Source: an uncultured Gammaproteobacteria bacterium (lineage in GTDB: Bacteria; Patescibacteriota; Patescibacteriia; 2-01-FULL-39-33). From it: 64,000 bases of DNA. Each line of letters begins with the position of its first letter. Position 1 is the first letter of the stretch. The notes beneath the pieces are model-generated. The model made no database searches and was not told the origin of the DNA. It was given only the letters and a program-made list of their open reading frames with translations. Positions 1 through 29,213 of the stretch are shown here, piece after piece. Location: NCBI GenBank assembly GCA_964573235.1, contig CAZNIV010000002.1:6102-70101 (forward strand), in the 5' to 3' direction. The position numbers and the translations under genes were made by a program.

Positions 1-1329
1 ACCAAAAGAATCTTTTTCTAGTAAATTAAGTTTTTCCATTATCTTGGCAGTGGCCAATTTAGGATCATCATTTAAACGACGAAAATCAATTAAGGTCATA
101 TTACCCAATTCTTCTACTGGACCAACTAATTTTTTAACAAATTTAACATCATCCAATTTAGGACGCCTCGCTTCAATATTAATTGGGGGAATAATAGTAT
201 TAGGCGAGAGGCGCGGAGCAGGATAGGGCGCTAAACTTTCGTATTTAATCACTGGCTGTGGTTTTACTGTAACTGACTGAGTCTCAATTACTGCTACCTT
301 TTTTTCTTCCGGCAAACTCTTTAATTCAGGCAATTCCACCTTCTTTTCTTCTTTTGGCATTTTAATCACCGGCAAGCCATTTTCATAGCCAATTTTTGGC
401 ACCGATTTTTCATCGATAGGTGAAATGTCTTTTTTAACTTTATCTTTACCAGTTAGTAAATCATTAATTTTGGATTGCAAGTCTAAAATCTTAGCCCCAG
501 CTGGTTTTTCAGCCACTGGCGCAATTTCTTTTGGTTCAATTAACTCCTTAGGCTCAGTCAACTCTTTTGGTTCCGTCAATGCCTTGAATTCTACCGTCGA
601 TTTCTTTTCAGCCAACATTTTTTCTTTTAAATCCATTGGCATTTTTGGCACAAACGGCAATGACTTTTCTGGCGCTAACAAAACCTTATTAACTACCGCC
701 TCTTTTTTCACAACAACAGCAGGGGGGCAAATACCATCCGAGCATTTTTTAATCAAAGTTAATAATTTATCCACTTGAGCATCATCAAACTCTAAACCGC
801 CAATTTTTTTAGCTTTTTGTAAGATATTTCTAGTTTCTAAATCATCACGAACACCCTTAATTGAAGCGATGATTGTATTTTCTAAGCGCTTTAAAACCAC
901 CAAATCATCAGTAAAATAACCAAAAGCTTTAATAATATCCTGCGCCAACTGCTGAAAGTGATTAGAGGATGGCATTTCGGATGCTATTTTTCTAAACTGA
1001 TCAATTTCATTTTCATCTTCCATCGAAACATTAAAATTAGCCTTATTTTTATCAACCTTAACCAATTGCTGATATCTTTTAAACAACGCTAAAAAATTAA
1101 ATAGCACATCATGATTAATCCCACCCGCTACGCCCACTTCATTCATTAAATAATTACCAATATTTTCCTCAGTCACATCACCAACTACTAATTTAACAAA
1201 AGCCATAGTTAAATCAACACCGTATTTTGTCTCTAATGCTTCAATCACGCCAAAAAAATCTGAACCAGATAATTTGTTTCTAATATCAAGCGGTAATTGA
1301 TTAAACTTTTGTAAACTGGTTAATTCCAT
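1..1329 (-). CDS. Hypothetical protein, 5' part (start ATG at 1329, runs off the left edge); Lys/Glu/Pro-rich with short KELTEPKE-like repeats in the C-terminal half
   Basis: Manual reverse-complement translation from 1329 gives MELTSLQKFNQLPLDIRNKL... with no stop before position 1. It is absent from the ORF track because it is open-ended. AT-rich host-like codons, first gene of the minus-strand cluster. Confidence 0.5.
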   Translation of the reverse strand, partial: MELTSLQKFNQLPLDIRNKLSGSDFFGVIEALETKYGVDLTMAFVKLVVGDVTEENIGNYLMNEVGVAGGINHDVLFNFLALFKRYQQLVKVDKNKANFNVSMEDENEIDQFRKIASEMPSSNHFQQLAQDIIKAFGYFTDDLVVLKRLENTIIASIKGVRDDLETRNILQKAKKIGGLEFDDAQVDKLLTLIKKCSDGICPPAVVVKKEAVVNKVLLAPEKSLPFVPKMPMDLKEKMLAEKKSTVEFKALTEPKELTEPKELIEPKEIAPVAEKPAGAKILDLQSKINDLLTGKDKVKKDISPIDEKSVPKIGYENGLPVIKMPKEEKKVELPELKSLPEEKKVAVIETQSVTVKPQPVIKYESLAPYPAPRLSPNTIIPPINIEARRPKLDDVKFVKKLVGPVEELGNMTLIDFRRLNDDPKLATAKIMEKLNLLEKDSFG

Positions 1330-1331
1330 AT

Positions 1332-2402
1332 TTATTTATTTTTTCTTTTTTGTTCGGCTAACGCCCTTAACTCTAATGGTGTGGCATTATCCAAAATAAT
1401 CTCTTCCGATTTATTTTTTTGATCGCTAGACTGGTCTGTGTTATCAATGATTTGATCCTCCACGGGAATAATCATCCATTGTTCAACTGGAATGCGATCA
1501 AATGCTTGGGGAAAAAATTTAATATTACGATAAACATTAAGCATTTTTTTAAGTTTCATTCTATCGGTTGAATCTAATCTCTTGGCGTTCTCTGAGCTGA
1601 TTAAATATTGAGTTAAAGCAATATTTTCAAAAAAACTAGAACCATTTTTTTCAATAAAATCTTGAATATAATTAGCCACAGTAGCTGAAACCATTTTACC
1701 TTTCAAATAAATTTGACCACTAGTTAGTAATTGCTGATTACTATAAAGCGCCGATTCTAAGCTATGCTTAAATTTTGGGTCTTCAATTAATAATTTTAAT
1801 AATACAAGATTATAATCCGTTAAAACTATAGCCATTGCTTCATCAGGAGTAAAAAATTGCACCAAACTTTCTTGAAATAATTTAGGTGCCCATTTTTTTT
1901 CTTCGGCATCATCACTCTCCACGTAAGTCAATTCGCTTTGAGCATCTTCCACTATATCTTCTGGGGTTGGTTCTTCTGCCTTTTTAGCCTCTTCCGCCTC
2001 GCGTTCACGCTCTGCTTCGGCTTCTTGGATAATCTGCTGTTGCCTTTCTACATATTCGCGATAATCAACTACATCACCACCATTATCGGCAATAAATTGA
2101 CTAACTCCACCGTTAAAATAGTTATCGAAGGTTAATAATCGCTTGCCAGCAATTTCTAAAGCTTTAGCCGTAGCCTCTTTGGGCTTAAGTTGCCAATTAT
2201 CTTGAAGATATTTTATCAAATCAGATACTTTTAAATCTTTAGCAAACAAATCAACACTAAGATCAGCAATTTTAGCATAACGATTTTCATCACTAATCAT
2301 AAAAACGGTTAATTCCCCATTTAAATCACCAAAAGATTCAGAAAAAATAACATCTTGAATGTTTAGTGGTAAATTTTTAATTTTAGGTATTAAATTACCC
2401 AT
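1332..2402 (-). CDS. Hypothetical protein with strongly acidic central stretch (EAEAEREREAEEAKKAEE)
   Basis: 356-aa ORF; only a 2-nt gap to the next gene, so it reads as an operon with the flanking minus-strand genes. Confidence 0.5.
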   Translation of the reverse strand: MGNLIPKIKNLPLNIQDVIFSESFGDLNGELTVFMISDENRYAKIADLSVDLFAKDLKVSDLIKYLQDNWQLKPKEATAKALEIAGKRLLTFDNYFNGGVSQFIADNGGDVVDYREYVERQQQIIQEAEAEREREAEEAKKAEEPTPEDIVEDAQSELTYVESDDAEEKKWAPKLFQESLVQFFTPDEAMAIVLTDYNLVLLKLLIEDPKFKHSLESALYSNQQLLTSGQIYLKGKMVSATVANYIQDFIEKNGSSFFENIALTQYLISSENAKRLDSTDRMKLKKMLNVYRNIKFFPQAFDRIPVEQWMIIPVEDQIIDNTDQSSDQKNKSEEIILDNATPLELRALAEQKRKNK

Positions 2403-2425
2403 AACTTACTTTAGAAAAACTTAAT

Positions 2426-5400
2426 TTAACTTATATAACTCTGCTTTCTTAGAGCATTTAAAATATCATCAGAACTCGTATCTCCGGCCGCAGCCCTAGC
2501 CTTTAATGCTTGCAAAAGAATATTAAATTTTTCTTCATTTCCGGTTTTAGCTAAACCATTAACCTGATTTGCTTTTAATGCATCAAGTAATTCAGGCGAT
2601 TGCAATGCGAGATCATCAAGATGTTCTAATGTAGCACCATTAATTGATTTATAAAATTCTTCCCTTCTACCTGGATTAGAAAAAATATTATTTACATTAA
2701 CACCCAAAGATACGCCACGGGCTGCCCAATCATTATCCTTTTTCTTACCATTAGCATCCGTTCTGTCGAGCGCATTCAATTTAATATAAGATTCAAAAGC
2801 TTTAATTGCCTTGGCCGTATGTTTATTAGATTCCTTAATGGTATCAAAAAATCTCTTATTATCAGCATCCGAAGCGTTATCCTTCATAGCTTTAATCATA
2901 TTCTCAGTAATGGAATTTTCATCCATTTTATTAAATTCAAATTTACCACTTCTGATTCCCTTATAAAAATCCAAACGACCGGCAATAGTGGTAAGATCAT
3001 TGGCCCAATCAGGGCGATTTTTATTCATTTCGTCATCAAACTTATCAACAGTAATATCATTACTAATTGAATCTCTAGCGCGCTCCATTGAAGCTTTGCT
3101 ATTAAAGCCATTTTTAATGGCTAATTGCAGAGCAATAGCTTGTCTCTTGGTGGCATCTTTTTCCATGTCAAATAAATTTTGAAGCATCTCCTTATTCAAG
3201 CCTTTAAGCTCTTTCATGGCATCACTAATATTCTTATCCTCCGCTTCTTCGGTAATGTTTTTAGTTTTATTTGTTGATGCTTGATAAGCGCTAACAAATC
3301 GTTTGCCCGCTCCACCTATGGTAGTAATTTCATTGCCAAGCAATGTGCCTTTGGCAATTTCCGACTTAAACTTATCATCCACTCCCGGATCCGCAACTCC
3401 TTTAACTTTGTCTCCTCTTTCGTTTATTAAGGTTCCATCATTAGTTAATATTAATCCCGGATCTCCAGCATCATTCTTTAACTGCAACACGCCTCTTTCA
3501 TCAATCTGCTTATACTGTTGATCTTTTTTGCCACGAGCAAAACGATTACCTTTTTCATCGGTATATTCATTATAACGCTGTACTACCTTACCATCCTTTT
3601 GATAAACCTTACCATCATCATCAATAAAGGCTCTGGCACTATCATTCCATTTATATGCACTTCTTACTGCTGCCGCATCAATTGGCCCACTACCATCTTC
3701 CTTCATGGCAATAGCCTGACCATTTTTATCAACCATTCCACCACGATCACCAGCCTCAACCGTAATATTACGCTTTAACTTATCTTCTTCTGGAATTTCA
3801 CCGGCAGCGTTAGCTTCCATTGACTGACCATTTTTATCTAACATATACTTTTTTCCGCCGGCATCAGCAAAAACATACCCACCCAGTTTTTCATTATAAG
3901 TGTGCTCCTTATCCTTTCCAGGTCCACCAGCATTAGCTTTAATACTCTCTTGTCTGGTTTGCGTTCCCTCATTAGAAGCGGCCAATAACCTTTCATCTTG
4001 CGCTCGCTTACTCTTTAATCTTTCGCCAAGCTTTAATTTATCAAGACCCAATCTAGTAAATGGATTTCCAAACGCACCAACAAGAAGACCGGCAGTCGTA
4101 CCCAGTCCAGGAATTACCGAGCCAGCCGCCGCACCTAGGGCAGCGCCCTTAGCCATGCTTTTAGCGGCACCAAAAGTTCCACTGATATGTCCACCAGCCA
4201 TTTTATCTATTCCAACGCCCACACCTTTAGTAACACCCCAAGTAGATGAAGCTACGCCCTTAGCCCTATCCAAATATTTCTTACGTTGATTATCTACAAA
4301 CTCCCTACCCTTATTCAGTACTGATTTAGCCACGCCAGCCCCGGCCGCACCCAAATCTTGACCCATCTTTAAGCTCATAATAAGCATACCAATAACAACC
4401 ATAGAACTAAGAATCCCTTCGGGAGAAGCTAGTTTTGACAATGCCACATTGGTTGTTGCTGTTCCTGTACTACCTATGGCCTCCGCATCTCCTTCGGCCC
4501 CATTTTTTAACTTATCGCCCTTAGAACACATTATTGAAGAAGTATTTTCGGTCTTTGCACAAAAAGCAGGTTTTTGCTCTTCCGTAGTGGCATTATATTG
4601 TGCCATGCCACTTAAGGTGGCAAAAGATAAATACACAAAAAACATCATTATCGGACCAGTGATTAAATTGGCTCTTAATTTGCTAGACCAATCTTTAGAA
4701 ATAGTGCTTAATTGCGGAATCATTTGACTCAAAAAATACAGCGGAGAGAGAATAACCAAAAACCATAATGTTATTAATCTGGCCAACAGCATAATAGCAA
4801 TAACACCAATAACCACAAAAGAAACTGTGCCCACCAATAATCCAACAATCAAAGCGACCACCATTCCCCAACCACCGGCGACAAAATCTTTAGTCAAACT
4901 AAGACTATTAGATAACCCCAAAGCCATCAATAATATATTTTGCCCTGATGTTTGCGCCAAAGGAGCAGCAAAGGTAAGCAATAATATTTGCGAGAAATCA
5001 ATCGCTATGCCCGTGATCATTTTAGAAAAATTAACCAAAATAGCCGTCATAATTACTTTTGGCAAAATGCTCTTGTAGTGATAAGCTTTTTGATCTAAAA
5101 CAGTACTCAAAGCCATTAGCAACATAACAATGATAAAAGCATTGTTACATAAATCCCTCACAATTACCCAACCACTTTCTACTACAGGAACATTAAGAAA
5201 ATTATTATAGGTGGCGATCCAGAGCATAACTTTTACCATTATGCCCACCATAAAACCGGCAAAATAAACAAATGGATAAATCAACCAAGAAACAATCATG
5301 GCTAACTTTGAACTACTATCCGTTGAAGCCGCGTCTTCGGCGCCAACCTCTCGACCCCAAAAAGCAATTACCACCATCAAAGACACTGCTAAAAATGTAG

Positions 5401-5443
5401 CTAATGCTTTTTTCTTATTTAACCGGTCAAATATCTTTATCAT
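2426..5443 (-). CDS. Polytopic membrane protein: N-terminal multi-TM domain resembling VirB6/TrbL-type proteins, followed by a ~650-aa hydrophilic, Lys/Asp/Gly-rich repetitive extension
   Basis: 1005-aa ORF with at least 7 hydrophobic helices in the first ~330 aa, then low-complexity charged sequence (KDGK, NDAGD, GDKVKG-like repeats). Confidence 0.5.
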   Translation of the reverse strand: MIKIFDRLNKKKALATFLAVSLMVVIAFWGREVGAEDAASTDSSSKLAMIVSWLIYPFVYFAGFMVGIMVKVMLWIATYNNFLNVPVVESGWVIVRDLCNNAFIIVMLLMALSTVLDQKAYHYKSILPKVIMTAILVNFSKMITGIAIDFSQILLLTFAAPLAQTSGQNILLMALGLSNSLSLTKDFVAGGWGMVVALIVGLLVGTVSFVVIGVIAIMLLARLITLWFLVILSPLYFLSQMIPQLSTISKDWSSKLRANLITGPIMMFFVYLSFATLSGMAQYNATTEEQKPAFCAKTENTSSIMCSKGDKLKNGAEGDAEAIGSTGTATTNVALSKLASPEGILSSMVVIGMLIMSLKMGQDLGAAGAGVAKSVLNKGREFVDNQRKKYLDRAKGVASSTWGVTKGVGVGIDKMAGGHISGTFGAAKSMAKGAALGAAAGSVIPGLGTTAGLLVGAFGNPFTRLGLDKLKLGERLKSKRAQDERLLAASNEGTQTRQESIKANAGGPGKDKEHTYNEKLGGYVFADAGGKKYMLDKNGQSMEANAAGEIPEEDKLKRNITVEAGDRGGMVDKNGQAIAMKEDGSGPIDAAAVRSAYKWNDSARAFIDDDGKVYQKDGKVVQRYNEYTDEKGNRFARGKKDQQYKQIDERGVLQLKNDAGDPGLILTNDGTLINERGDKVKGVADPGVDDKFKSEIAKGTLLGNEITTIGGAGKRFVSAYQASTNKTKNITEEAEDKNISDAMKELKGLNKEMLQNLFDMEKDATKRQAIALQLAIKNGFNSKASMERARDSISNDITVDKFDDEMNKNRPDWANDLTTIAGRLDFYKGIRSGKFEFNKMDENSITENMIKAMKDNASDADNKRFFDTIKESNKHTAKAIKAFESYIKLNALDRTDANGKKKDNDWAARGVSLGVNVNNIFSNPGRREEFYKSINGATLEHLDDLALQSPELLDALKANQVNGLAKTGNEEKFNILLQALKARAAAGDTSSDDILNALRKQSYIS

Positions 5444-5460
5444 TTTAACTTGATTAGGTT

Positions 5461-8400
5461 TTATTGTTTGATAACATAAACACCCTTAGTCTGCTCTGCC
5501 GTTCTTTCCCAATTATCAGTTACGGATATATTAATTTTAACACAACACCACGACTCATTACTAGAGATAGGTTTAATTGTTTTATTGCCACAAATAGATT
5601 CCGCTAAAGCATCTTGGCCATCACCACTACAAATAATATTATTTGCTGTTGAAGCTTCTTTAGAGTTTTCTGCCTTAATCTTCCAATAATCATAAGCATG
5701 ATACATTAAATAAGGCGCATCAGGATTAGCTCGATTATCTTTCATAGAAACATTAGAAACAGAGCTGGAATTGCTGTCACCCCAATTAATATTATAATTT
5801 TGAATTGGCAACTGATTAGAGTCAACCGAAACAGTAAAGCCTAATTTAACCGCTTGCTTTTCATAAGCCCAATTTTTATTTGAACCATCTAGAGTAATAT
5901 TAGTAGAAGTAACCACAGGGTCAATATAGCAGTAACTAGAATCATTAGCTCTCACATTTCCCACACAATTAAGGGTAGGTAAATCCCAAACAAATTTATT
6001 TAATGAATCTGTGCTCTCGCCATAGTGATACCAAGACCCTGCTACGTTAGAACAAGAATTGCCCTTATAATCACATGCGGTTGAAATTGTTCTAGAGCAA
6101 TGACCACTAATTATAATACTACTATCACAATCATTACTGTCTGAGCATGGTAATCCTGAATCAAAAATAGTACCACTTGGATCTGTTTTATAGCGACAAT
6201 TTTTATCTACCGTTTTTACTTCAGCGTATTCTAATAAACAAAAATTATTTTTTTCTATATCCGTACTCCCTAAACATTCACGGCCATCAAACTTACCACC
6301 ATCACAAACACCATTATCGCATTTAACATTACTATCACAAGAAACTAAACTATTTAATACAGACGAAGGTGTTGTGGTGCATCCAATTCCATCATTAGGA
6401 CCACCAACACATACATAATTTTTAACCGGATTATATGGGTCCTCCATACAAATACCATCCCTAATATCAATAAATGCGCCATAGCAATCCTTATTAGCCT
6501 CTGCCTGACTCAATCCGAAGCACTCACTAGAAGTACCATAAAATAAACTTGAGAAATCAGTGAAATCAGCACAAATACCCTTACCCGTTGTCGTCTTCCA
6601 ATTTTCGCAACTATTCGATACTGAATTAACACTTAAACAAGTAGTTGAAGCGAATGCGGTTGATGAACTAAACCCATCATTAAACCCGCCCACGCAAGTC
6701 CATTTTGTTATTTTGTTAGTAACTATTGGCCAAGTACATGAGTCACGAGTTGCGGTTTTATCAGAACCCTCATCTTTAACACACATATTTTCTCGATCAA
6801 TTTTTTTATACTCCCATTCACCATAACTTCTAGCAAATATACTCTTTAATAATTCTCTTGATTCACCAATAGAGTTAGTAGTCGCTACGATTTTACAAGT
6901 TGTTCCATTATCAAGACAAGTATCTGGACTAAGCGCTGCAAAAGGATAACACTCTTCACCAGTAGGGCAACCCAAATCACCAAGACCAATTGAAGATCTA
7001 GGTATAGTATTGGTAGAATTTCCTAATTGTAATTGAACACCGCTAAGAATAATAGAATTAACCACACCATATGCTAAACAATTTGTATGAGAAATACTAC
7101 ATAAACCAAAACGCTTACAATTATCCCCATCGCAACCAAAGGTAACACCCTTGCCCATTCCCATAGTATAAGGCTTCCCTCCATCCCACATATAAGGATC
7201 ATAGTCTGACTGTGGCGTAACCAATGAACCAAAGGGATATTTACCTGAGTTAATAGTTATGGGCACTAAGTCATTTCGCAATAAACGCACATTTAATACC
7301 CCACCTGGGTTAGTCAACCAAAAATTATCACCAGCGGAAAGCCTACTATACCAAGCCTTGCTATTGCCCGCATCGTCAACCACTTGCTCTACATACTTAC
7401 AGTAACCAACATTATTAGAACTAACCGCCTTATTATAATCCATTATCGTACCACCATCAACATCTTTCAGATAAACCTGAACACCTTTTTCTTTTTCATC
7501 AAAATAGGAATTATCATTCTTTTTAATTTGTTGCAAATCACCATTATACTCATACCATCCACTAGTATTTGCATCAGTATAAATCGAATCTCTCTTCACT
7601 AAATCTGCCAATACCGGCTTACAATAATCCCATGTTTTAACGCTACCATTTTTAAATAAACCGGCTTTTTTTATTTCATCATCATGATGATAAAAATAAC
7701 CAAATGGACATTCACCACAGCCAGAACCACGACACTGTTGTCTTAGCGTGCCACTTGGATTATAATTTTTATCTTCAATTTCAAAATTATTTATAGGTGA
7801 TCCCAAAACGGCATCCAATAAGTTTCCAGTTAACGCCGTAACCTTAGGAAAGGTATAGCTAGGATGCCAAAAGAAAACAGTATTAACGCCAGCATAAATA
7901 AGACCAGGAGGGCCAAGCCACTTATACCAAGCGGCGCTATTCCAAGCCGATTTTATTGTTTTACTGGTATAATTAAACAAAACCACTTCGCGATGCTCCA
8001 CCAAATGCATATCACCCTCAAGAGCGGCACAATAATAAAGTGGGAAACTCTTAGAGAAATAATAAGGTTCGCCATCACCCTTAATTTTATCAACTGGCCA
8101 CCACTGCAAACAAATCTGTGGGTTATTAGGATCGGAAACCATACAAAAACCTTGCCAGCCATTATACATGTCACCATTTTTAACATAATTACAAGCCTGG
8201 GAATCACCTTCGGGATATAAACGACAACTACGAGAAATATAAATATTGCTATTATTTACATCCTTTCCGGCCTCTAAAATTGGCTTTAAACTAATTAGGT
8301 CAAACAAAGAATAACCACTAACATCACATTGTCCATCAAGATTGGAATCCAAGCACCCAGTTGTTACCGTAGTACTAGCCTGCTGAATTGTCATACACTT

Positions 8401-11400
8401 AGTATTTTGACCAGAGCCAACGGTAGCAAAACAATTTTGCACACTTACATATAAAGCGCCACCATTTTGATAAACCTCAGGTGGTAATGGCTTACTAATT
8501 CGTTGCCAAGGCAAACCAGCAGAAACGGTATCAATGACACGACCATTAACCGAAATCAAAACTTTAGCCTGAGGTGACGGATAAAGGTAGCTAGTATTAA
8601 TCCAGGCGGAGAAAGAATATGCATTATCGCCATCAACACTTATAGGATTAGAACGAACAGTTCCATCAGCATTAACTTTTAAATAACCAATTCCTTCTTT
8701 TCTATCTGTTTTACTAGTTGCAACCGAAAATTTATCTATTGTCCAGGCAGTATCAACTCCTGGTTTCCAACCAATTGGTTTTGGCTGATCGGCATTATAA
8801 ATATATTCAAAATCAGAGTTAGCAATGTTAGCATCCTCACCAACTTGCGACATTAAATGATAAGGATAATAACCCAATACCGTAGAACTACTCTTGCCGG
8901 ATGCATTAGGTATTTGTTTCCCTAACATTGAGTAACCAGTCTTGTTAATATCTAACCCTTTATCATAAACCGAAATTTTATTCTGATTATTAACAAACAA
9001 AGAACAATTACCCATACCATCTAAGGCGGAACATAACGCTAGACCTAAGCACTGGTCACTAGATCCAAGCACCGGATTAGGATCGTTAACATTTCCTTTC
9101 TCAAAGGTATTACAATATAACCAAGAAGCACACTGTCTATCTGGTTGAACTTTAATCACGGCATTAGCGCTAACATTAGACTTTAAGCCACTACTATCGT
9201 CATTCGCCTTATTAACAGCTATTGCCTGACTAGTGCCTACATTCTTATTTTCAATATAGTCCGCATCATAAATCAAATAAGAGCGATCTCTAGTACTAGG
9301 GTTATCGGCATAATTAACAGCACCGCGATCATTTAATAAAACACACCCCTTACGATAATCCACCATACCCTGACAACTAGCTCTACTATCAGTCATCTGA
9401 TCTGATAAATTATAATAAACTCCTGATTCTGTTAATTTTACATCAGTAACACTACCACTGGCGCCAACTAATAGGGTGCAATTTTTAGTGTCCCTTGCAT
9501 ACAAGCGACCACTGACCGAAGATGATGCTATTAAATTATAATTCAAAGATGCTGAACTGCCATCACTAGAAATAACCATGGAACCATCTGGCGACCGCAT
9601 TGAACCTTCACTACACTTAACATCAATGGCCACTTGACCATCTGCTAACATTGATAAGGAGTATAACCTATCATCTATCAAGTTAACATCCTGACTTACT
9701 ATTCCAGTCACAAAAGAATGAGTGACCTCTTTTTTATAATTAAACCCAATACTATTAATCTCCCAACCGTCTGGACGATTTATATCTCCTAAGTTTTGAC
9801 TAAAATCACCATTATATAATAAGCTGGCATAATTATTAGTTAATGGATCAATGAATTCCGTACAAGAGCTTTGTGAACTAGGGCAAACACCAGCCCATTT
9901 CATATTCTGATCTGGTTGTAACTTTTCAGAAACCACACCCAAACCAATAGTTTGATAAGGCGAAGTATCACACAAACCATCTTCGCCCATTCTGTACCAA
10001 GCCGGAGTCGAACTAGTCGTTAAAGATTTAAACTCACATACTTGCTGGCGAGGATCTTTAAAATAATTATAAGTATTATTAGTTGCGTATTCACCACACC
10101 ATAAATTTTCCGCTCGACATAAAGATCTAGAATATGTTTGCGGATCATTCTTAATATAGACCGTACTATAACCCATTACCTCGTTGCGATTATTAATAAC
10201 TGGCTGACCATAGGCCGAGCAACCCTTGTTCTCTGCTAAACAACTAAACTTTTTATCATTTACAATAAACGCTAAATTATCTTTTACCACTGAAACCGAA
10301 TCGGCTGTGGCCACAGTTCCGCCAAAACTTTCAGAAGAAGTAGCATTAGAATTATGGGTATCAATCATCGCTTCACAACCAACCGCCTCAGCGCGACATA
10401 GACTAGTAAATGATCTCAAATAAATAGGGTCAACATTATCAGTTTTATTATTATATGCTTGGCAACCTAACATTTCACCGGGATTGCAACGACCATTAGC
10501 GCAAGCCGTGCCAGTTGGATCGTCTAATTTATTATCACAACTATTGGGAGTGAACCAAGAATTTTCAATAACATAAACATTACCCTTCACCTCTTTGAGG
10601 GTTATATTGTCTATATACAAGTCATTGCCAATACTATTAGTAGCTCCTGGATTAATTGTTAAATCCTGCCAACCATCATCAGCAAAAGTAACAAAAACTG
10701 GACCCAAATCATAGCGTTGCCATTCATTGCCAATATGCACTTTAGGCACATTCAACGAAATGTTTTGCAACTGACTCTTAGCAAAATAATCACTCTGCTC
10801 TGAAGCGCTACTAAATTTAATACTCTCTAAGTCAAATCCAGCGCTACTGGCATGATCATTGTCGCCACCCGGATACCCCTTAGCCCAAAAACTTAAAGTA
10901 TAGGTATGATTTCTTTTAACATAAACCTGCTTAGAGGTAGTGGCCTTAGTGAACCAAGAAAAACCACCCACGGCAGTAGAAACAATACTTAAATTACTAT
11001 TACTACCACTCCAATTACTATAGCTATTATCAAAATTATCATTAACTAAGAAATTAATATCATTACTCAAATTGCCCGTATATTCTCGGCAACCCACAAA
11101 AGAAGCTGAGCAAGATTGCCCCATTTTTGGAACCGCCATATACACGCACTCCTTTTCATCACTCCAAAAACCATTATTACTAACACAATCACATTGCGTA
11201 ACAGAAACATTTTCATTATTCAACTCTGCGCATTGCGTAGTTAGACTTGGGTCTTGAGTTAGCGTACGACGATATGGATGACAATCATCCGTAACATAAA
11301 TAACCTTAGACAATAAGCGATAATAAACATCGCCATTGGAATCATAAAATTCTCGACAATCGGCATTAGGCGCAATATCAACACCATTAGCGTTATACCC

Positions 11401-14400
11401 ATGGGTTTCTAATTTTAAACAAATACCATATTCATGAAGCTTATCGGCCACAGACTGAGAAACAGCTCCGGTAGGAATCTGAGTGGCATCGGTGGTAGAG
11501 GAAATGTACGCTAGATAGGAAACTAAATTGTGATTTGTAATTGGCGCTAAATCAACCGCAGTCTGAATTAACTCGTCAGTAATATTAGACGCATCGCCAC
11601 ATTGGGCATCTTTATCGCTAGCACCATTATACTGCATTTTAGTACAAGGAGATCCAGACTCTACTCCAGTACTATTAGACTGTTTTAATTTAAAAGTAAC
11701 CAACTGATAACCTGTAGTTTCTGCGCCCTCCCAAGTATAATAAGTCTTAGCATCACTTGGCCCAATCGGTGCATTCTTTTGGCAAATACGCAAATTTGTA
11801 TAATATTCTTTAGATTCACCGCCAGCAACTAATTCATCAAGATTAGTAAATTCATCGCAACCAGCGTAGCTAGCAGAACAATATTTAGCTTTATTGTTAG
11901 CAATAAATTGAGTATAACGAGGGGATGAAAAAGCTGTTTGGCTTTGACGATAAACCTGATAACCATCACACTCCGAAGGACAAGAATCTATAGGCTTAAC
12001 TACTCCCGGAACTTCTGGATCACCATTTTTTGGTTCATAAAGCTTACAACCAACTTCACTTGGAATACAAACACCAGCATAATTCGAGCATTCGCTATTG
12101 CGCTTAATTAAGACATCATCCAACTCACCTTGAGTAGCCGGCCAAGAACCATTTGCACTGGCACTATAACAATTATAATACCAAGGCGCTTTTTTAAGAT
12201 AAGCTATGTCATTAGCCACAATAGTGGAAGGATCATAATCCTGATTAGTGATTGCTAATTTATACCCATCAGTGGTGGTGGTGACTAAACCACTCTGATG
12301 ACCATCGCCAACTCTAATAAACTGACTACAACCAGCCTGATTACTAGCACAAGTTTGAGCATCGCGATCAAAAAATTTGGTATTAGAAGTACTAGTAGTT
12401 ACTCCCAAATTTAAATAAATCTCATAACCACGACTAGTCCATTCCGCTATTTTAGAAGAAGTGGCGACCTTACAAGCAGAACCATTGTAGGGTATTCGAC
12501 ATTCTACTGTACCAATATTACAATCACCCTGCTGATCACATATTTTATTTAATGAATACCCTTGACTAGCCCCAAAATTAGAAGCATTCCATCGATCAAC
12601 ATTCACCTGGACCGAGGCCGTACAACCGCCAGAAATATTACACTTATTCAAAATATTATTAGTATCCGTATTCATCCAAGTAGCCACGCCCGACAAAATG
12701 CCTGTAGTAGTTGCTATGTTGTTATAATAATCACTATACCACTTACAACCAACATTATCAGCTGAACAATTTTGATAATCAAGGGTATTTTTCAAATAAG
12801 AAACGGCCACATCGCTACCTATCTGATAAGTTTGACAGGTATTATAAACTGGCTCGCACTTTGGCGCATCAAACTTCCAAACGCGCTTTTCGTTAGTACA
12901 ATAACCATAGGCTTGGCAACTACCATTAATATCTTCTTTAATACACTGTTGCTCATCACCACAATAATTATCACGACTAACGTTACCGCCCTGACTATTA
13001 GACATATCTGGGCCAAAGCCCTCACGACGACAAAATAGCTCTGGCGCCTTTAAGACCCAATACTGATCAATTAAACCAGAAAATTCCGATCCATCCTCAA
13101 ATTTATTTAATAAGTCACCCAAGGTATATGATTTACCAGTACCACCTTGTTCTACAATATATCTAGCCGCAATCTCCCAACCCACTGGAACAATGCGATA
13201 TTTACGAAGAATAATAATATTACGAAGAGTGAAAGCGGTTTGCGGATTAGTAACCTGATTAACATTTGGGGCAAAAATACGATTCTTAATAGAGTCAGGC
13301 AAATCGAAAAGTTGTTTTTTATCTCTAATCGCCTGAGCAAATTCCTGATCAATCACACAACCATCATAAGATGGGCGAGCTGGATCTATACAGCTTGCTA
13401 AGCGATTTAATAAATCATAAGGACCACCAACAGTAAAGGCTCCTTGTTTTAAATTTTGAAATTTAACTTCTGCATCGGCCTGACCACTAACGGCAGGCGC
13501 AGACTGAGAATTATATAATGGATTAGCGCTATAATTATAACTACGACCATAATCGGCATTTTTACTAAAAAAACCAGAAATTAAAGTCTTCACTAATTCT
13601 GATGTCAAAGTGTTTAAAAATGTTTCCACAAAATCAGCTGCCGTTCCACCAAGATACTGTGGTAAGGTCTGAGCCTTATCTATGCTCTGGCCCCACTGCT
13701 CTTTAATAAAACTTCCAGGGGTTAAGATGTTTTTAGCAACATCAGTAATACTCTTCCATCTACCATCCGTTATTGCGGTTAAAAAAACTTTCTTTTCCGC
13801 CGCCACCTGCCTATCGGCTACGCTGGTTTGAACAGTTAAGATAGAACCGATATCATTTTGATTTGGCTGAAAATATTCATAATAGCCCAAAGAAAAATTA
13901 GCATTATTAATGGCCGTGTCCCAATTTTTAATTGCCGTCGATAAAGAACATCTTGGTTTAGGTGGTTCTTTTACACCCAATATTGGCAAAAGATTCAACT
14001 TAATATTAAAATCTGGTTGACAAATATTAAAACCAGCGGCGCTCATAAATTTATCTACCATTTCACCCAAGGCATTATCAACAGCGTCTTGCATAATTTT
14101 ACTAGCATCTCTAGTATCATATTGTGCCTGCTGACCCTTACCACCAGATGCTACCCACTTGGCTGATTCATAAGCAATGGTTTTGGTTAACATGGATAAA
14201 CCAGACTTAAAAGCGCTCGCTATAGCATTTTTCCAAGCTTCATCTCTTGCTTTTTTTTGCAACTCCTTAGCCCAAACATTCAACTGCTCTTCATTAACCT
14301 CACCAGAGGAGTACATACTATTAGCCTTTAAACACTCCGCCTGAACGTCTAAATTGACCGAGTCCTTAACTACATTATACTTAGTAAGATTAATTAATCC

Positions 14401-14661
14401 CCCCGTACCTAATAGAAAAAAATCAGGGGCAAGATTAGATGTAATTACCCCCTTAGCAGCAGCGCCACCGGTGAGACAAGTCGCATAGGCAGCCGCCGCT
14501 TTTGCCTGTTCTGCTGAAGCTTCGGCTAATGTTATGGTGGATTCAATAGTATCCGCCCCACCATCTGCTCTAACTAGAAGGGAAAAAGAAAAGTTTAAAC
14601 CTAACAATAAAATAAAAATTAAACTTGGCCACCCACGCAAAAACCATTTTTTATTAACCAT
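5461..14661 (-). CDS. Giant secreted/cell-surface protein (3066 aa), very cysteine-rich, Asn/Ser/Thr/Gly-rich, no recognisable catalytic motif
   Basis: N-terminal signal peptide (MVNKKWFLRGWPSLIFILLLGLNFSFSLLVRA), several hundred Cys spaced as in disulfide-rich extracellular modules, single uninterrupted 9.2-kb ORF. Confidence 0.7.
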   Translation of the reverse strand: MVNKKWFLRGWPSLIFILLLGLNFSFSLLVRADGGADTIESTITLAEASAEQAKAAAAYATCLTGGAAAKGVITSNLAPDFFLLGTGGLINLTKYNVVKDSVNLDVQAECLKANSMYSSGEVNEEQLNVWAKELQKKARDEAWKNAIASAFKSGLSMLTKTIAYESAKWVASGGKGQQAQYDTRDASKIMQDAVDNALGEMVDKFMSAAGFNICQPDFNIKLNLLPILGVKEPPKPRCSLSTAIKNWDTAINNANFSLGYYEYFQPNQNDIGSILTVQTSVADRQVAAEKKVFLTAITDGRWKSITDVAKNILTPGSFIKEQWGQSIDKAQTLPQYLGGTAADFVETFLNTLTSELVKTLISGFFSKNADYGRSYNYSANPLYNSQSAPAVSGQADAEVKFQNLKQGAFTVGGPYDLLNRLASCIDPARPSYDGCVIDQEFAQAIRDKKQLFDLPDSIKNRIFAPNVNQVTNPQTAFTLRNIIILRKYRIVPVGWEIAARYIVEQGGTGKSYTLGDLLNKFEDGSEFSGLIDQYWVLKAPELFCRREGFGPDMSNSQGGNVSRDNYCGDEQQCIKEDINGSCQAYGYCTNEKRVWKFDAPKCEPVYNTCQTYQIGSDVAVSYLKNTLDYQNCSADNVGCKWYSDYYNNIATTTGILSGVATWMNTDTNNILNKCNISGGCTASVQVNVDRWNASNFGASQGYSLNKICDQQGDCNIGTVECRIPYNGSACKVATSSKIAEWTSRGYEIYLNLGVTTSTSNTKFFDRDAQTCASNQAGCSQFIRVGDGHQSGLVTTTTDGYKLAITNQDYDPSTIVANDIAYLKKAPWYYNCYSASANGSWPATQGELDDVLIKRNSECSNYAGVCIPSEVGCKLYEPKNGDPEVPGVVKPIDSCPSECDGYQVYRQSQTAFSSPRYTQFIANNKAKYCSASYAGCDEFTNLDELVAGGESKEYYTNLRICQKNAPIGPSDAKTYYTWEGAETTGYQLVTFKLKQSNSTGVESGSPCTKMQYNGASDKDAQCGDASNITDELIQTAVDLAPITNHNLVSYLAYISSTTDATQIPTGAVSQSVADKLHEYGICLKLETHGYNANGVDIAPNADCREFYDSNGDVYYRLLSKVIYVTDDCHPYRRTLTQDPSLTTQCAELNNENVSVTQCDCVSNNGFWSDEKECVYMAVPKMGQSCSASFVGCREYTGNLSNDINFLVNDNFDNSYSNWSGSNSNLSIVSTAVGGFSWFTKATTSKQVYVKRNHTYTLSFWAKGYPGGDNDHASSAGFDLESIKFSSASEQSDYFAKSQLQNISLNVPKVHIGNEWQRYDLGPVFVTFADDGWQDLTINPGATNSIGNDLYIDNITLKEVKGNVYVIENSWFTPNSCDNKLDDPTGTACANGRCNPGEMLGCQAYNNKTDNVDPIYLRSFTSLCRAEAVGCEAMIDTHNSNATSSESFGGTVATADSVSVVKDNLAFIVNDKKFSCLAENKGCSAYGQPVINNRNEVMGYSTVYIKNDPQTYSRSLCRAENLWCGEYATNNTYNYFKDPRQQVCEFKSLTTSSTPAWYRMGEDGLCDTSPYQTIGLGVVSEKLQPDQNMKWAGVCPSSQSSCTEFIDPLTNNYASLLYNGDFSQNLGDINRPDGWEINSIGFNYKKEVTHSFVTGIVSQDVNLIDDRLYSLSMLADGQVAIDVKCSEGSMRSPDGSMVISSDGSSASLNYNLIASSSVSGRLYARDTKNCTLLVGASGSVTDVKLTESGVYYNLSDQMTDSRASCQGMVDYRKGCVLLNDRGAVNYADNPSTRDRSYLIYDADYIENKNVGTSQAIAVNKANDDSSGLKSNVSANAVIKVQPDRQCASWLYCNTFEKGNVNDPNPVLGSSDQCLGLALCSALDGMGNCSLFVNNQNKISVYDKGLDINKTGYSMLGKQIPNASGKSSSTVLGYYPYHLMSQVGEDANIANSDFEYIYNADQPKPIGWKPGVDTAWTIDKFSVATSKTDRKEGIGYLKVNADGTVRSNPISVDGDNAYSFSAWINTSYLYPSPQAKVLISVNGRVIDTVSAGLPWQRISKPLPPEVYQNGGALYVSVQNCFATVGSGQNTKCMTIQQASTTVTTGCLDSNLDGQCDVSGYSLFDLISLKPILEAGKDVNNSNIYISRSCRLYPEGDSQACNYVKNGDMYNGWQGFCMVSDPNNPQICLQWWPVDKIKGDGEPYYFSKSFPLYYCAALEGDMHLVEHREVVLFNYTSKTIKSAWNSAAWYKWLGPPGLIYAGVNTVFFWHPSYTFPKVTALTGNLLDAVLGSPINNFEIEDKNYNPSGTLRQQCRGSGCGECPFGYFYHHDDEIKKAGLFKNGSVKTWDYCKPVLADLVKRDSIYTDANTSGWYEYNGDLQQIKKNDNSYFDEKEKGVQVYLKDVDGGTIMDYNKAVSSNNVGYCKYVEQVVDDAGNSKAWYSRLSAGDNFWLTNPGGVLNVRLLRNDLVPITINSGKYPFGSLVTPQSDYDPYMWDGGKPYTMGMGKGVTFGCDGDNCKRFGLCSISHTNCLAYGVVNSIILSGVQLQLGNSTNTIPRSSIGLGDLGCPTGEECYPFAALSPDTCLDNGTTCKIVATTNSIGESRELLKSIFARSYGEWEYKKIDRENMCVKDEGSDKTATRDSCTWPIVTNKITKWTCVGGFNDGFSSSTAFASTTCLSVNSVSNSCENWKTTTGKGICADFTDFSSLFYGTSSECFGLSQAEANKDCYGAFIDIRDGICMEDPYNPVKNYVCVGGPNDGIGCTTTPSSVLNSLVSCDSNVKCDNGVCDGGKFDGRECLGSTDIEKNNFCLLEYAEVKTVDKNCRYKTDPSGTIFDSGLPCSDSNDCDSSIIISGHCSRTISTACDYKGNSCSNVAGSWYHYGESTDSLNKFVWDLPTLNCVGNVRANDSSYCYIDPVVTSTNITLDGSNKNWAYEKQAVKLGFTVSVDSNQLPIQNYNINWGDSNSSSVSNVSMKDNRANPDAPYLMYHAYDYWKIKAENSKEASTANNIICSGDGQDALAESICGNKTIKPISSNESWCCVKINISVTDNWERTAEQTKGVYVIKQ

Positions 14662-14669
14662 ATATATAA

Positions 14670-15590
14670 TTACTGTTGATAATTCGCTTTATTTTTTTCT
14701 AACTGCTGAGTAAAGATTGTTTTTATATCAGCGTCAGAAATTTGCGATAACATATTGGCGTCGGCGCCTTGACTCAACATTAACTGGCGAATTTGCGGGC
14801 CAGTTAATTTAGCTAAATCATCAATGGATTTAATAGCGCTTAAATCAACAGAACTACCATTAAAGCTGGTTGAACTTGAAACATTAACCGAACTAGTACT
14901 TGAGCTATTTTGCATCTGCTTATTTGCTTCGATCATATTTTGATAAGTGGTCATTAGGTCAGTATCAGAAATTTGCGCCAAAACCTCAACCGAAGCGCCA
15001 CCCTGTTGCAATAATTGCCTTAACATACTAGGAGTAGCTTGACCAGAAGTAATTTGTTCTGGACTAAAGCCTAAGCTATTTGTTGGAGCATCTTGCAATG
15101 TTGGCACCGAAACCGATTGGGCAACATCAGCCCCAGAAACTACCACGCCTTTGCAATTTTCACCCAAACAATTTGGATCAACACCCAAGGCAATAGATTT
15201 TTTATCATCAATACCATCACCATTACTATCTTTTAAGTAAGGGCTAGTTTTATAAACATTAATTTCATCATAATCATTTAAGCCATCCATGTCAGTATCT
15301 TTACCCTGTTGCTCAACATTAACCGCTAGTTGATTTTTCAACTGTTCACTAGTGATTTCTTTTTGCACCATAGGGGTAACTCGGGACCAAGTTGGCTTGC
15401 TAATATTGTAATATGAAGAAAAAAAGCCATAAAAAATTGCTACCACACCCACTAGCATCAAAGTAATTGTAGCTAATTTTTCACCCTTTGGTTTGTGCGC
15501 CAAAAAACCCCTTTTGACCCTTTGGTCAACCGAGTTTTGTTCATTAGAATCTTCGACAAACTTAGAATCTAAATTGTTCTCACCTTCCAT
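14670..15590 (-). CDS. Membrane-anchored protein with thrombospondin-type-3/dockerin-like calcium-binding motifs and two copies of a ~55-aa C-terminal repeat
   Basis: One TM helix (LATITLMLVGVVAIFYGFF); DTDMDGLNDYDE and DSNGDGIDD motifs; repeated LAQISDTDLMTTYQNMIE / LSQISDADIKTIFTQQLE modules. Sits 8 nt upstream of the giant gene. Confidence 0.55.
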   Translation of the reverse strand: MEGENNLDSKFVEDSNEQNSVDQRVKRGFLAHKPKGEKLATITLMLVGVVAIFYGFFSSYYNISKPTWSRVTPMVQKEITSEQLKNQLAVNVEQQGKDTDMDGLNDYDEINVYKTSPYLKDSNGDGIDDKKSIALGVDPNCLGENCKGVVVSGADVAQSVSVPTLQDAPTNSLGFSPEQITSGQATPSMLRQLLQQGGASVEVLAQISDTDLMTTYQNMIEANKQMQNSSSTSSVNVSSSTSFNGSSVDLSAIKSIDDLAKLTGPQIRQLMLSQGADANMLSQISDADIKTIFTQQLEKNKANYQQ

Positions 15591-15709
15591 AGGCTTTGAT
15601 AGACAATTTTGCTAATCAATTTATTACCTTAATTATATCACAAATAAAAAAAGATGGCTAGTATATTAAACCATAAATCGCCATCTCTTTTCTACTACTA
15701 AATTTTAAA

Positions 15710-16534
15710 TTAACTCTTAATTTTTTGCGCTAATTGAATCCAATTATCTAAAGACAAATCTTGAGCTCTAATTTTTTCATTTAAGCCTAGCCCCAATAGA
15801 AGAACCTTCACTTCTTCGTTGCTTATTTTTAATCCGCCCGACAAATTATTCTGCAACTGCTTACGCTTGGCCGCAAAACCAATATTCACTAGACGAAAAA
15901 AAGTTTTTAAATCTACTTTTGGCAAATCAGTTTTAATCTTAAAACTAACCACTGCCGAATCAACCTCAGGAGCTGGCCAAAACTTTTCTCGACCAACTTT
16001 AAATAAAATTTTTGGCTCACTATAAAATTGTGCCATTACCCCCAAACGACTCAGCTCTCCCGGTTTGGCCACAATACGCTCGGCTACTTCTTTTTGCACC
16101 ATTAAAATCATTTCACTTGGCTTAATAGCTACCACCTCTAAAAACATGCGTAAAAAAAACGAGGTAATATTATATGGCAAATTAGCCACTACCTTATATT
16201 TGCCGGTTTCTAGCTTTAAATCAGTTAATTTAACCCGCAAAATATCGCCATCGATAATTTCTAAGTTTTTAGCGCTAATAAACTCAACGCGCAAATATTC
16301 CAAAACTTTGCGATCTAATTCTACAGCAATTACTCGACCAGAAGCGTCAATTAATTTATTAGTTAAAACCCCCAAGCCCGGCCCAACCTCTAAAACGGTG
16401 CTATTTTTATCTAATTTTGACTCTTTTATAATATTATCAATTACTCCGTCATCCACTAAAAAATTCTGTCCGCGGTTTTTACTCGGATAAATACCATACT
16501 TTTGGCAAACTAATTTGATTTCTGTCGCTTTCAT
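15710..16534 (-). CDS. rsmA: 16S rRNA (adenine1518/1519-N6)-dimethyltransferase
   Basis: RGQNFL motif, SAM-binding VLEVGPGLGVLT, typical KsgA length. Confidence 0.9.
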   Translation of the reverse strand: MKATEIKLVCQKYGIYPSKNRGQNFLVDDGVIDNIIKESKLDKNSTVLEVGPGLGVLTNKLIDASGRVIAVELDRKVLEYLRVEFISAKNLEIIDGDILRVKLTDLKLETGKYKVVANLPYNITSFFLRMFLEVVAIKPSEMILMVQKEVAERIVAKPGELSRLGVMAQFYSEPKILFKVGREKFWPAPEVDSAVVSFKIKTDLPKVDLKTFFRLVNIGFAAKRKQLQNNLSGGLKISNEEVKVLLLGLGLNEKIRAQDLSLDNWIQLAQKIKS

Positions 16535-16537
16535 AAT

Positions 16538-17722
16538 TTAGAGTAATAAATATAAGGTAGTAAATAAGCCCGCTAAAATAAACACCGCATTCCAACCCGG
16601 TTCAATAAATTGAAATATCACTAACGATAAAATCAAGGCTAAAATCTTACCAAAAACCAAAGCCATTTCAAAAAACACCACCGCCCGCATCACATGATGG
16701 CCATCGTTCGCTTTTTGATAAGTAAAGGCTACAAATGGTATGGCGATTACCTGCTTAGCTACGCGAGACAGGGTATCGACGGCAAAAACAGGATAAATAG
16801 TGCGCGACAATAATCTAAAAAACCAAGCTAAGACATAAAAAAATACACCGTATCGCATCACGCTTTGTTTATCGCGACCATCAATAATCTTGCCCACATA
16901 TAAAGAAACGATCGTGGTAATTAATACCGCAACAGCCGCCAAGGTACCTAACTTTAAAAAATCAGCCACTACGATATAAATAAAAATTGGCCACACCACT
17001 AAAACAATCAACTCTTCACCAAAACCCAAGTGAGCAAAAAAACGACGACGATGTTTTTTATCAAACAAAGTAGAAAACGCCTCCCGATACGAAAACTCTG
17101 ACGGGGTGAATTGCTCTTTAGTGAGCAACATCGGCACATTAGATAATAAAATAATAATTGAAGCGATCAAAAATAATACATTAAAACCAAAATAGTTTAA
17201 GACTAAACCGCCAAATAACGGCCCGAGCACAAACACAATCGCATCTAACACGCTTAAGTTACTAATCTGCTTGCCCTGAGCGCCATCGGTGGCAAAATAA
17301 GCAAAATCCGCATGATAAGCAGGCCAAAAAAAAGATTTAGAGGCAATATAACACAAAACCGAAATACCCAAAAACCAGAAATTTTGTTGAGAGGCAAACA
17401 AAGTTAAATACAACAAAACCGTAAACACTGAACCCAAAGCAATAGAATGCTCAAAACCAAAGCGCTTGGCAAATTTTGCTCCCAACGGCACTACAAAAAA
17501 ATAAATGAGGTACACAGACAAATAATAGAGCAATACACCCTGCACCGCCTGTGCCACTGACCAAGATTTAGCAAATAACAAATAGATAAAAACCGGCTCA
17601 AACAGATTAACCGCCGATAAAGCAAAGTTTAAAATAAAAATTGAAGCATAAAGTTCTTTAATCTCGCGTTTGAGATTCAAGCAAAAAAAACTAGAACCTA
17701 ATTGTTTAATTTTATCTAGCAT
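16538..17722 (-). CDS. MFS-type transporter (about 12 TM helices)
   Basis: 394 aa, hydrophobic throughout with a basic central loop (KKHRRRFF). Confidence 0.6.
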   Translation of the reverse strand: MLDKIKQLGSSFFCLNLKREIKELYASIFILNFALSAVNLFEPVFIYLLFAKSWSVAQAVQGVLLYYLSVYLIYFFVVPLGAKFAKRFGFEHSIALGSVFTVLLYLTLFASQQNFWFLGISVLCYIASKSFFWPAYHADFAYFATDGAQGKQISNLSVLDAIVFVLGPLFGGLVLNYFGFNVLFLIASIIILLSNVPMLLTKEQFTPSEFSYREAFSTLFDKKHRRRFFAHLGFGEELIVLVVWPIFIYIVVADFLKLGTLAAVAVLITTIVSLYVGKIIDGRDKQSVMRYGVFFYVLAWFFRLLSRTIYPVFAVDTLSRVAKQVIAIPFVAFTYQKANDGHHVMRAVVFFEMALVFGKILALILSLVIFQFIEPGWNAVFILAGLFTTLYLLL

Positions 17723-21700: not shown

Positions 21701-21936
21701 CCCATCGGATGTAAAACATTAAACCCCTTTAATCTCCAATAACGAGAAAAAATATCGGTCGCTGTATAACCTTCTGGATGACCAACATGCAAACCCATAC
21801 CTGATGGATAAGGAAACATATCCAAAATATATTTCTTGGGTTTGGTGGAAAAATCTTCAGCTTTAAAAGTTTTATTATCTTCCCAGAACTTCTGCCATTT
21901 TGGCTCAATTTCACTAGGGTTATACTTAGCGTTCAT
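18724..21936 (-). CDS. leuS: Leucine--tRNA ligase carrying a ~195-aa YdeN/RBBP9-like serine-hydrolase insertion and a duplicated 67-aa C-terminal segment
   Basis: HVGHPEGY (HIGH) motif, CP1 editing domain, KMSKS, C-terminal domain. Insert runs from about 20020 to 20604; tandem duplication at 18826..19227. Confidence 0.9.
18826..19227. repeat. Perfect tandem duplication, 2 x 201 bp, in frame inside the leuS 3' region
   Basis: Unit 18826-19026 is identical to 19027-19227 in the displayed sequence; the protein shows [67 protein letters not shown] twice. Confidence 0.85.
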
Positions 21937-28523: not shown

Positions 28524-28550
28524 TGGTTTGTGAGGCTGGGCTTACCTCAG

Positions 28551-29135: not shown

Positions 29136-29213
29136 TTTTTTCTATCTCCTGTTTGTTGGGCATTATTGCCCGTTGTTGATGTACGATACACTTACTTGTA
29201 CAAGTGACCCATT

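Follow-up and report, generated by a model that had tools for sequence, protein, structure and literature searches.

The five co-directional genes on the minus strand of positions 1-15590 of the analysed DNA, a 64-kb window of contig CAZNIV010000002.1 (assembly GCA_964573235.1), probably form the promoter-proximal part of a chromosomal type IV secretion system (T4SS) locus of an ABY1-class Patescibacterium (Buchananbacteria- or Falkowbacteria-like), in which the product of the second gene, a giant cysteine-rich protein of 3066 amino acids (aa), would take a surface-contact role. The window holds only the 5' part of that locus. The T4SS core is the MPF-FATA-like system of Patescibacteria, already described in 2023 and 2025 (PMC10633639, PMC12102498), and is not new; the accessory module found here beside an extended VirB6, which comprises the giant protein with its C-x6-C motifs and CBM-like domains, a membrane protein with thrombospondin type 3 (TSP3) motifs, and the proteins p356 and p507, was not found described. 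The initial annotation, made from the DNA letters alone, had likened the cluster to the T4SS-like host-interaction gene sets of candidate phyla radiation (CPR) bacteria. The identity of VirB6 and the conserved VirB3-TrsD-VirB4 order agree with this likeness; a host-interaction role of the giant protein and of the accessory module is what we infer.

The third gene encodes an extended VirB6, a polytopic channel subunit of the category defined in the 2025 nomenclature review (PMC12857230). Hydropathy analysis places at least seven hydrophobic helices within residues 12-360 of this 1005-aa protein, and in its AlphaFold2 (AF2) model the helices spanning residues 43-289 have a predicted local distance difference test (pLDDT) score >90. 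Its 81 homologues, all from Patescibacteria and 560-1280 aa long, share residues ~40-290 and have divergent tails; W92, R96, D97, N100, N138, F139, S140, D149, R222, S233, and P234 are invariant in the family. Precomputed matches to PF04610 or PF19590 exist for 21 of the 81 homologues, and in separate Pfam scans of 36 trimmed N-terminal domains, 11 matched TrbL (best E 1.3e-7), while no non-TrbL family appeared in more than two members. Since these TrbL matches lie in the homologues and not in the window protein, its membership in the VirB6/TrbL family is assigned by transitive homology. A Foldseek search of the transmembrane domain against the PDB returned the R388 TrwI/VirB6 chains as the sole specific matches (probability 0.92-0.97, target TM-score 0.35-0.46). 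A PDB profile search with the full-length alignment was discarded, as it yielded just coiled-coil and low-complexity noise from the tails.

The tail itself is hydrophilic and charged (16.4% D+E, 16.4% K+R), contains six short D-x-[NDRK]-G motifs, and is modelled by AF2 mostly at pLDDT <50 with helical islands; self-BLAST found no long repeats in it. The VirB6/TrbL similarity that had been proposed for the N-terminal domain is thus borne out by the TrbL matches of 11 of the 36 members, by the TrwI fold match, and by the VirB3-TrsD-VirB4 operon described below. The polytopic and charged character of the protein also stands, but the tail, originally put at ~650 repetitive residues, comes to ~535-600 aa and is weakly repetitive.

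The continuation of the locus beyond the left end of the window can be followed on two contigs. One (L001) matches the window at 100% identity along 3030 bp; the other (L092) does so along a 204-bp overlap with the left end of the window, and along 505 bp with L001. On these contigs, p507 has a full length of 507 aa, and its stop codon is followed by a gene for a 144-aa PrgI-family protein (PF12666, 31.2 bits, cut-off 27) and then by an open reading frame (ORF) that aligns N-terminally with the TraC-like protein (PF26593) of a related locus, L007. The same genome has thereby been shown to encode PrgI/VirB3 and then TraC-like/TrsD downstream of gene 5. At its end (3336-3376), contig L001 carries a Nextera adaptor-like sequence, CTGTCTCTTATACACATCTCCGAGCCCACGAGAC, and the public contig was therefore not adaptor-trimmed.

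Longer versions of the locus are found on contigs of relatives. In L004, the order is rsmA, a TSP3_bac protein, a 2700-3800-aa protein, a VirB6-like protein, one or two unknown genes, PrgI (VirB3), a TraC-like protein (PF26593, TrsD type), and a VirB4-type ATPase (DUF87/AAA_10/P-loop_TraG), followed by small membrane proteins and radA. Loci L007, in which VirB4 matches P-loop_TraG at 5.3e-30, and L010 (Falkowbacteria) have the same order and end in a comF-like (Pribosyltran) gene and recG; upstream, L010 has LeuRS, FemAB, MFS, and rsmA in common with the window. Among GTDB species genomes, at least 580 relatives were retrieved, the best 80 of which belong to Buchananbacteria, Falkowbacteria, and Uhrbacteria (class ABY1), and in about 50 related ABY1-class genomes (Buchananbacteria and Falkowbacteria) the genes stand in the order giant, VirB6, p356, p507, PrgI, TrsD, VirB4. 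Counted over the GTDB loci with enough flanking sequence (55 downstream and 46 upstream of virB6), PrgI lies downstream of virB6 in 51 loci, the TraC-like protein and p507 in 50 each, VirB4 in 48, and p356 in 41, and a giant homologue lies within 10 kb upstream in 35 of 46. The giant gene abuts virB6 in ~16 of the 46 relatives, with gaps ranging from a few nt to ~1.4 kb (17 nt in the window). Because the gene order is kept in dozens of species, the clustering is not due to chance.

Several further observations were made on these loci. The rsmA/ksgA gene stands directly upstream of the T4SS-associated block in the window (15710-16534) and in L004, L008, L010, and L011, loci that extend to distant classes of Patescibacteria and include L008, which has no giant gene; this linkage agrees with the KsgA enrichment in PMC12102498. 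In L008, which comes from a distant class, the gene after virB4 (17171-20830) encodes a 1219-aa Peptidase_M23 protein that may be a VirB1-like wall hydrolase; the ABY1 loci examined showed no counterpart. Many GTDB representative records with the locus (L012-L091) are titled 'uncultured Gammaproteobacteria bacterium', and these titles of third-party-annotation metagenome-assembled genomes are probably mislabelled.

According to the ORF list, the five window genes are closely packed, with gaps of 8, 17, 23, and 2 nt; their common direction and tight spacing had been noted previously, but one gap slightly exceeds the 2-20 nt then given. The best promoter-like site (Table 1) sits in the 119-nt spacer between rsmA and gene 1. 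The total count of promoter-like sites in the region is not above that in shuffled sequences. Pattern matching found no terminator-like site in the short intergenic gaps of the cluster.

The giant protein begins with a hydrophobic segment (residues 12-30) followed by VRA/DG and contains 116 cysteines (3.8%), 58 of which are conserved in at least 80% of 62 homologues; its description as a 3066-aa cysteine-rich protein with a signal peptide is accordingly upheld. These homologues, collected by a word-indexed search, are 1700-3900 aa long (mostly ~3000 aa), and the alignments cover the greater part of their length. With residues 140-1200 as the query, an exhaustive phmmer search retrieved 1331 clusters at 50% identity at E<=1e-3 (1088 at E<=1e-30), and among the top 150 clusters nearly all members have 2400-3900 aa; it is a family of Patescibacteria. 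Many of the conserved cysteines stand in invariant C-x6-C pairs followed by [EKQ]-[FY] (e.g., CSASYAGCDEF, CRAEAVGCEAM), and ~12-15 copies of the motif C-x6-C-x-[EKQ]-[FY] are spread across the whole protein. An identity of this motif with the 'Myxococcus cysteine-rich repeat' was considered and dropped, as it had no NCBIfam support, and so was a PKD-like C-terminal domain (WGDG...YH.Y motif), which has no Pfam match.

Three N-x-D-F...W starts mark predicted CBM_4_9-like jelly rolls in the giant protein. In the window protein, PF02018 reaches 15.9 bits, under the cut-off of 25.9, and in three homologues (P0085, P0092, and P0107) it scores 32.5-43.5 bits, over that cut-off. For most of the length there is no Pfam or NCBIfam family; the profile of the conserved N-terminal domain has no NCBIfam relative, and neither this domain nor the whole protein has PDB sequence relatives by phmmer and profile searches. 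Residues ~900-1190 are modelled by AF2 at pLDDT 80-93 without a PDB fold match, and a Foldseek search of the model of residues 140-1200 against the PDB gave chance-level matches, from which no fold was assigned. Self-BLAST found no long internal repeats. The cysteine-rich insertion at residues ~2500-2900 is missing from most homologues. No S-layer or S-layer homology (SLH) match was obtained in Pfam, NCBIfam, PDB sequences, or PDB folds; save for the CBM_4_9-like domains, the giant protein matches no curated or solved family, an ordinary S-layer family included. The window also encodes a DsbA-like membrane thioredoxin with an N-terminal extension (34942-35703, minus strand; PF13462, 8.5e-24), which is consistent with extracytoplasmic disulfide formation and could plausibly serve as the oxidase for the secreted 116-cysteine protein.

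Gene 1 encodes a type-II (N-in) single-pass membrane protein of 306 aa, with one transmembrane segment at residues 39-57 by hydropathy, two DxDxDGxxDxxE motifs at residues 98 and 121 (DTDMDGLNDYDE and DSNGDGIDDKKS), and a duplicated 39-aa C-terminal unit (repeat score 81 vs. 27.9 +/- 5 in shuffles). The transmembrane segment, TSP3 motifs, and internal repeats reported earlier are all present. Pfam TSP3_bac (PF18884) does not match the window protein and matches its orthologues only faintly; weak NCBIfam matches to MtsD and CglD (5e-4 to 9e-4) were obtained. In all eight loci where it is visible, the ORF directly upstream of the giant gene bears one or two TSP3 motifs, and such an ORF is also present in L004, L010, and L011. 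Since a TSP3 ORF precedes the giant gene wherever visible, the two form a conserved pair, and the 306-aa protein may be an anchor or partner of the giant protein.

Between virB6 and prgI lie the genes for two soluble proteins without transmembrane segments. As had been indicated, p356 is acidic (isoelectric point 4.66) and p507 has a K/E/P-rich middle, here with three copies of EPKEL. By hhalign (98%, E 1.7e-13), an N-terminal domain of ~100 aa is common to both, and they are thus paralogues. Neither has Pfam or PDB relatives, and both are unrelated to the VirB6 tail. None of the five cluster proteins scored over threshold when scanned directly against Pfam and NCBIfam.

Table 1. Features of the cluster, with positions in the 64-kb window
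Feature	Position	Strand	Basis or remark
Candidate operon promoter (best promoter-like site)	15632..15660	-	TAGCCA-17-TATAAT with TG; consensus match only
Gene 1, TSP3 protein, 306 aa	14670-15590	-	
Gene 2, giant protein, 3066 aa	5461-14661	-	
Predicted Sec-type signal peptide, giant aa 1-33 (...SLLVRA/DG)	14563..14661	-	Hydrophobic segment; putative cleavage site
Conserved low-Cys N-terminal domain, giant aa 140-560	12982..14244	-	Mostly helical, orphan; conservation profile; low AF2 confidence
Cys-knot region, giant aa 561-1200	11062..12981	-	Holds part of the C-x6-C-x-[EKQ]-[FY] copies
First CBM_4_9-like jelly-roll domain, giant aa ~1204-1340	10642..11052	-	PF02018, N-x-D-F-x...W start
Second CBM_4_9-like domain, from giant aa 1617	~9412-9813	-	Putative domain, predicted extent
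Third CBM_4_9-like domain, from giant aa 1948	~8362-8820	-	Putative domain, predicted extent
Lineage-specific Cys-rich insertion, giant aa ~2500-2900, 31 Cys	5962..7164	-	Alignment occupancy 0.06-0.45
Gene 3, VirB6-like protein, 1005 aa	2426-5443	-	
VirB6/TrbL-like polytopic membrane domain, aa 1-400	4244..5443	-	Pfam matches of homologues, hydropathy, AF2, Foldseek
Hydrophilic, charged, fast-evolving C-terminal extension, aa 401-1005	2426..4243	-	Conserved in only 2/80 homologues
Gene 4, p356, 356 aa	1332-2402	-	
Gene 5, p507, first 443 codons in window	1..1329	-	Runs off left end

The T4SS of Patescibacteria has a distinct VirB4 clade related to monoderm MPF-FATA systems, together with TrsD, VirB3/PrgI, and VirB6; KsgA (RsmA) is a frequent neighbour, the ABY1 loci occur with comF, recG, and radA, relaxases are almost absent, and PrgB-like adhesins went undetected (PMC12102498). 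Southlakia epibionticum, of the Saccharibacteria, cannot grow as an epibiont without its T4SS (PMC10633639). The locus described here resembles these systems (SEML1_0006-0019 of S. epibionticum; Quinonero-Coronel et al. 2025, PMC12102498) in being chromosomal and of monoderm type, in its VirB6-VirB3/PrgI-TrsD-VirB4 core, in its ksgA/rsmA neighbour and the comF, recG, and radA genes downstream in ABY1, and in having no relaxase or type IV coupling protein (T4CP) nearby. It differs by the giant cysteine-rich exoprotein and the TSP3 membrane protein encoded just upstream and by the orphan paralogues p356 and p507 between virB6 and prgI, and neither the window nor its closest relatives showed a VirB2-like pilin array; the giant family is not mentioned in PMC12102498 or PMC10633639, in which no adhesin was detected.

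With the Gram-positive MPF-FATA systems (prgH-prgI-prgJ of pCF10, trsC-trsD-trsE of pGO1, and pIP501), it shares VirB6 (PrgH), VirB3 (PrgI), TrsD, and VirB4 as well as the use of a surface protein (putative here) in place of an outer-membrane complex. However, it is not located on a plasmid or an integrative and conjugative element, has no relaxase or T4CP, and its putative surface partner is a Sec-secreted protein of 3066 aa without LPXTG or similarity to PrgB. The extended VirB6 paralogues of Rickettsiales likewise combine an N-terminal multi-helix VirB6 domain with a long hydrophilic C-terminal extension (PMC12857230), whereas the extension here is ~600 aa, charged, mostly predicted to be disordered or helical, unrelated in sequence, and found in a monoderm CPR bacterium. 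Finally, large cysteine-rich extracellular proteins with signal peptides (~1650 aa on average) and a proposed role in attachment are known from the CPR Peribacteria (PMC4736985). Compared by description, they resemble the giant protein in size class, signal peptides, and very high cysteine content, but they are shorter and not tied to a T4SS, and the giant family is distinguished by its C-x6-C motif and CBM4/9-like domains.

It is reasonable to assume that VirB4, VirB3, and the extended VirB6 would constitute the membrane translocon, of which VirB6 and VirB3 are shown for the window genome. The giant protein would be exported by the Sec pathway, stabilised by disulfides, and, with its predicted CBM4/9-like lectin domains, held at the cell surface, possibly by the product of the preceding gene, the TSP3 membrane protein with its Ca-binding motifs. 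There it may contact the surface of the host cell and fill the adhesin role of the PrgB-type proteins in Gram-positive conjugation, whereas p356 and p507 could be lineage-specific cytoplasmic accessory factors or substrates. No relaxase or VirD4-type coupling protein was found in the window, where the sole FtsK is a housekeeping protein, or in the Pfam-annotated contexts L004, L007, and L010, and the cargo is therefore probably not conjugative DNA. A bolder proposal, tentative and on balance rather unlikely, is that the giant and TSP3 proteins are extracellular structural parts of the ABY1 T4SS. Made rigid by disulfides and tipped with lectin domains, they would build a stalk or docking platform that takes the place of both pilus and PrgB-type adhesin and connects the epibiont with the host envelope, with p356 and p507 as dedicated cytoplasmic chaperones or substrates. 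If true, this would constitute an unrecognised architectural class of monoderm T4SS.

Two considerations make the locus of wider interest. In groundwater and wastewater, ABY1 ranks among the most abundant classes of the CPR. Moreover, no T4SS before that of Patescibacteria had been shown to be indispensable for the survival of its own bacterium. The published survey of these systems found no adhesin, and the four accessory families, linked here to the operon in ABY1, are candidate contact and cargo-handling parts.

A number of results weigh against a T4SS-linked surface-contact module. At the level of VirB6, Pfam TrbL (PF04610) does not match the window protein at E<=1, the TrwI/VirB6 Foldseek matches have E-values of only 0.015-0.08, and a PDB profile search with the trimmed alignment returned no match. 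The identical contigs end inside the TraC-like gene, so VirB4 is assigned to the window genome from synteny. The AF2 model of residues 140-1200 of the giant protein is poor (mean pLDDT 58.7), a putative adhesin role of this protein has no fold or domain support beyond the CBM-like domains, and an interaction between it and the TSP3 protein is hypothetical. As to linkage, the giant gene is separated from virB6 by genes for LysRS/AsnRS, MetRS, ArgRS, or MacB/FtsX in ~19 of the 35 giant-bearing loci, no giant gene was detected within 10 kb of virB6 in 11 of the 46 loci, and the distant-class locus L008 has a T4SS without a giant gene. The interposed ORFs were considered as T4SS parts and rejected, being genes for aminoacyl-tRNA synthetases or MacB. 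Given the interposed housekeeping genes and the loci in which the giant gene is missing, the arrangement is a conserved neighbourhood rather than an obligate operon, and it is plausible but unproven that the giant protein is functionally tied to the T4SS.

These linkage data also feed the strongest alternative, namely that the TSP3 and giant proteins make up a surface module of their own (for example, a general adhesin, an envelope scaffold, or an S-layer-like coat), which is just a neighbour of the T4SS, as both lie in a conserved region near rsmA, and has no mechanistic link to secretion. In addition to the interrupted and giant-free loci, L011 has a transposase and SerRS between the giant gene and virB6, and large cysteine-rich exoproteins are common in CPR irrespective of T4SS (PMC4736985). 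Nonetheless, the proximity of the giant gene and virB6 in 35 of the 46 species-level genomes, their adjacency in about 16 of them and in the window, the lack of terminator-like sites in the window gaps, and the failure of the giant protein to match any S-layer or SLH family speak for a tie to the T4SS, and we would put the independent module at somewhat short of an even chance.

The other candidate function for the ABY1 T4SS is to take up DNA in a ComB-like manner or to exchange it, instead of conducting effectors or nutrients, with the surface module capturing DNA or cells. The comF-like, recG, and radA genes that follow the T4SS genes among L004, L007, and L010, as they do in the ABY1 loci of PMC12102498, would fit such a function. 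However, in Southlakia the T4SS is essential and competence (comEC) is not (PMC12857230), which argues against uptake as the essential role; no DNA-binding domain was found by Pfam and NCBIfam in the five window proteins, and the predicted CBM-like domains point to glycans rather than DNA. A DNA-uptake or DNA-exchange machine is accordingly considered unlikely. That the cluster belongs to an integrative conjugative or other mobile element, as the descent of VirB4, VirB3, and VirB6 from monoderm conjugation systems (PMC12102498) might suggest, is very improbable and was rejected, since neither a relaxase or coupling protein nor an integrase or repeats turned up, housekeeping genes (rsmA, MFS, FemAB, LeuRS, and UvrA) flank the cluster in the same order as in Falkowbacteria L010, and the region is uniform in GC content and skew.

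The remainder of the window is ordinary chromosome (UvrA, TruD, PFOR, RNase J, P-type ATPase, SHMT, RecA, and FtsK) without an integrase. Between 28000 and 30000, GC rises to as much as 0.449, compared with ~0.37-0.39 elsewhere; this region has no Rfam match and contains two overlapping ORFs (28530-29207 on the plus strand and 28551-29135 on the minus strand), followed by two small ORFs without a Pfam match. The 1070-aa LeuRS (18724-21936, minus strand) has an insertion, a Ser_hydrolase/alpha-beta-hydrolase domain (PF06821, E 2e-16, aa 452-622), that separates the editing domain from the remainder of the catalytic core and is unusual for LeuRS. The 3' end of leuS also contains a perfect tandem duplication (18826-19231; 201 bp x 2.0, 100% identity) that doubles 67 aa of the C-terminal domain and arose either very recently or as an artefact of the assembly.

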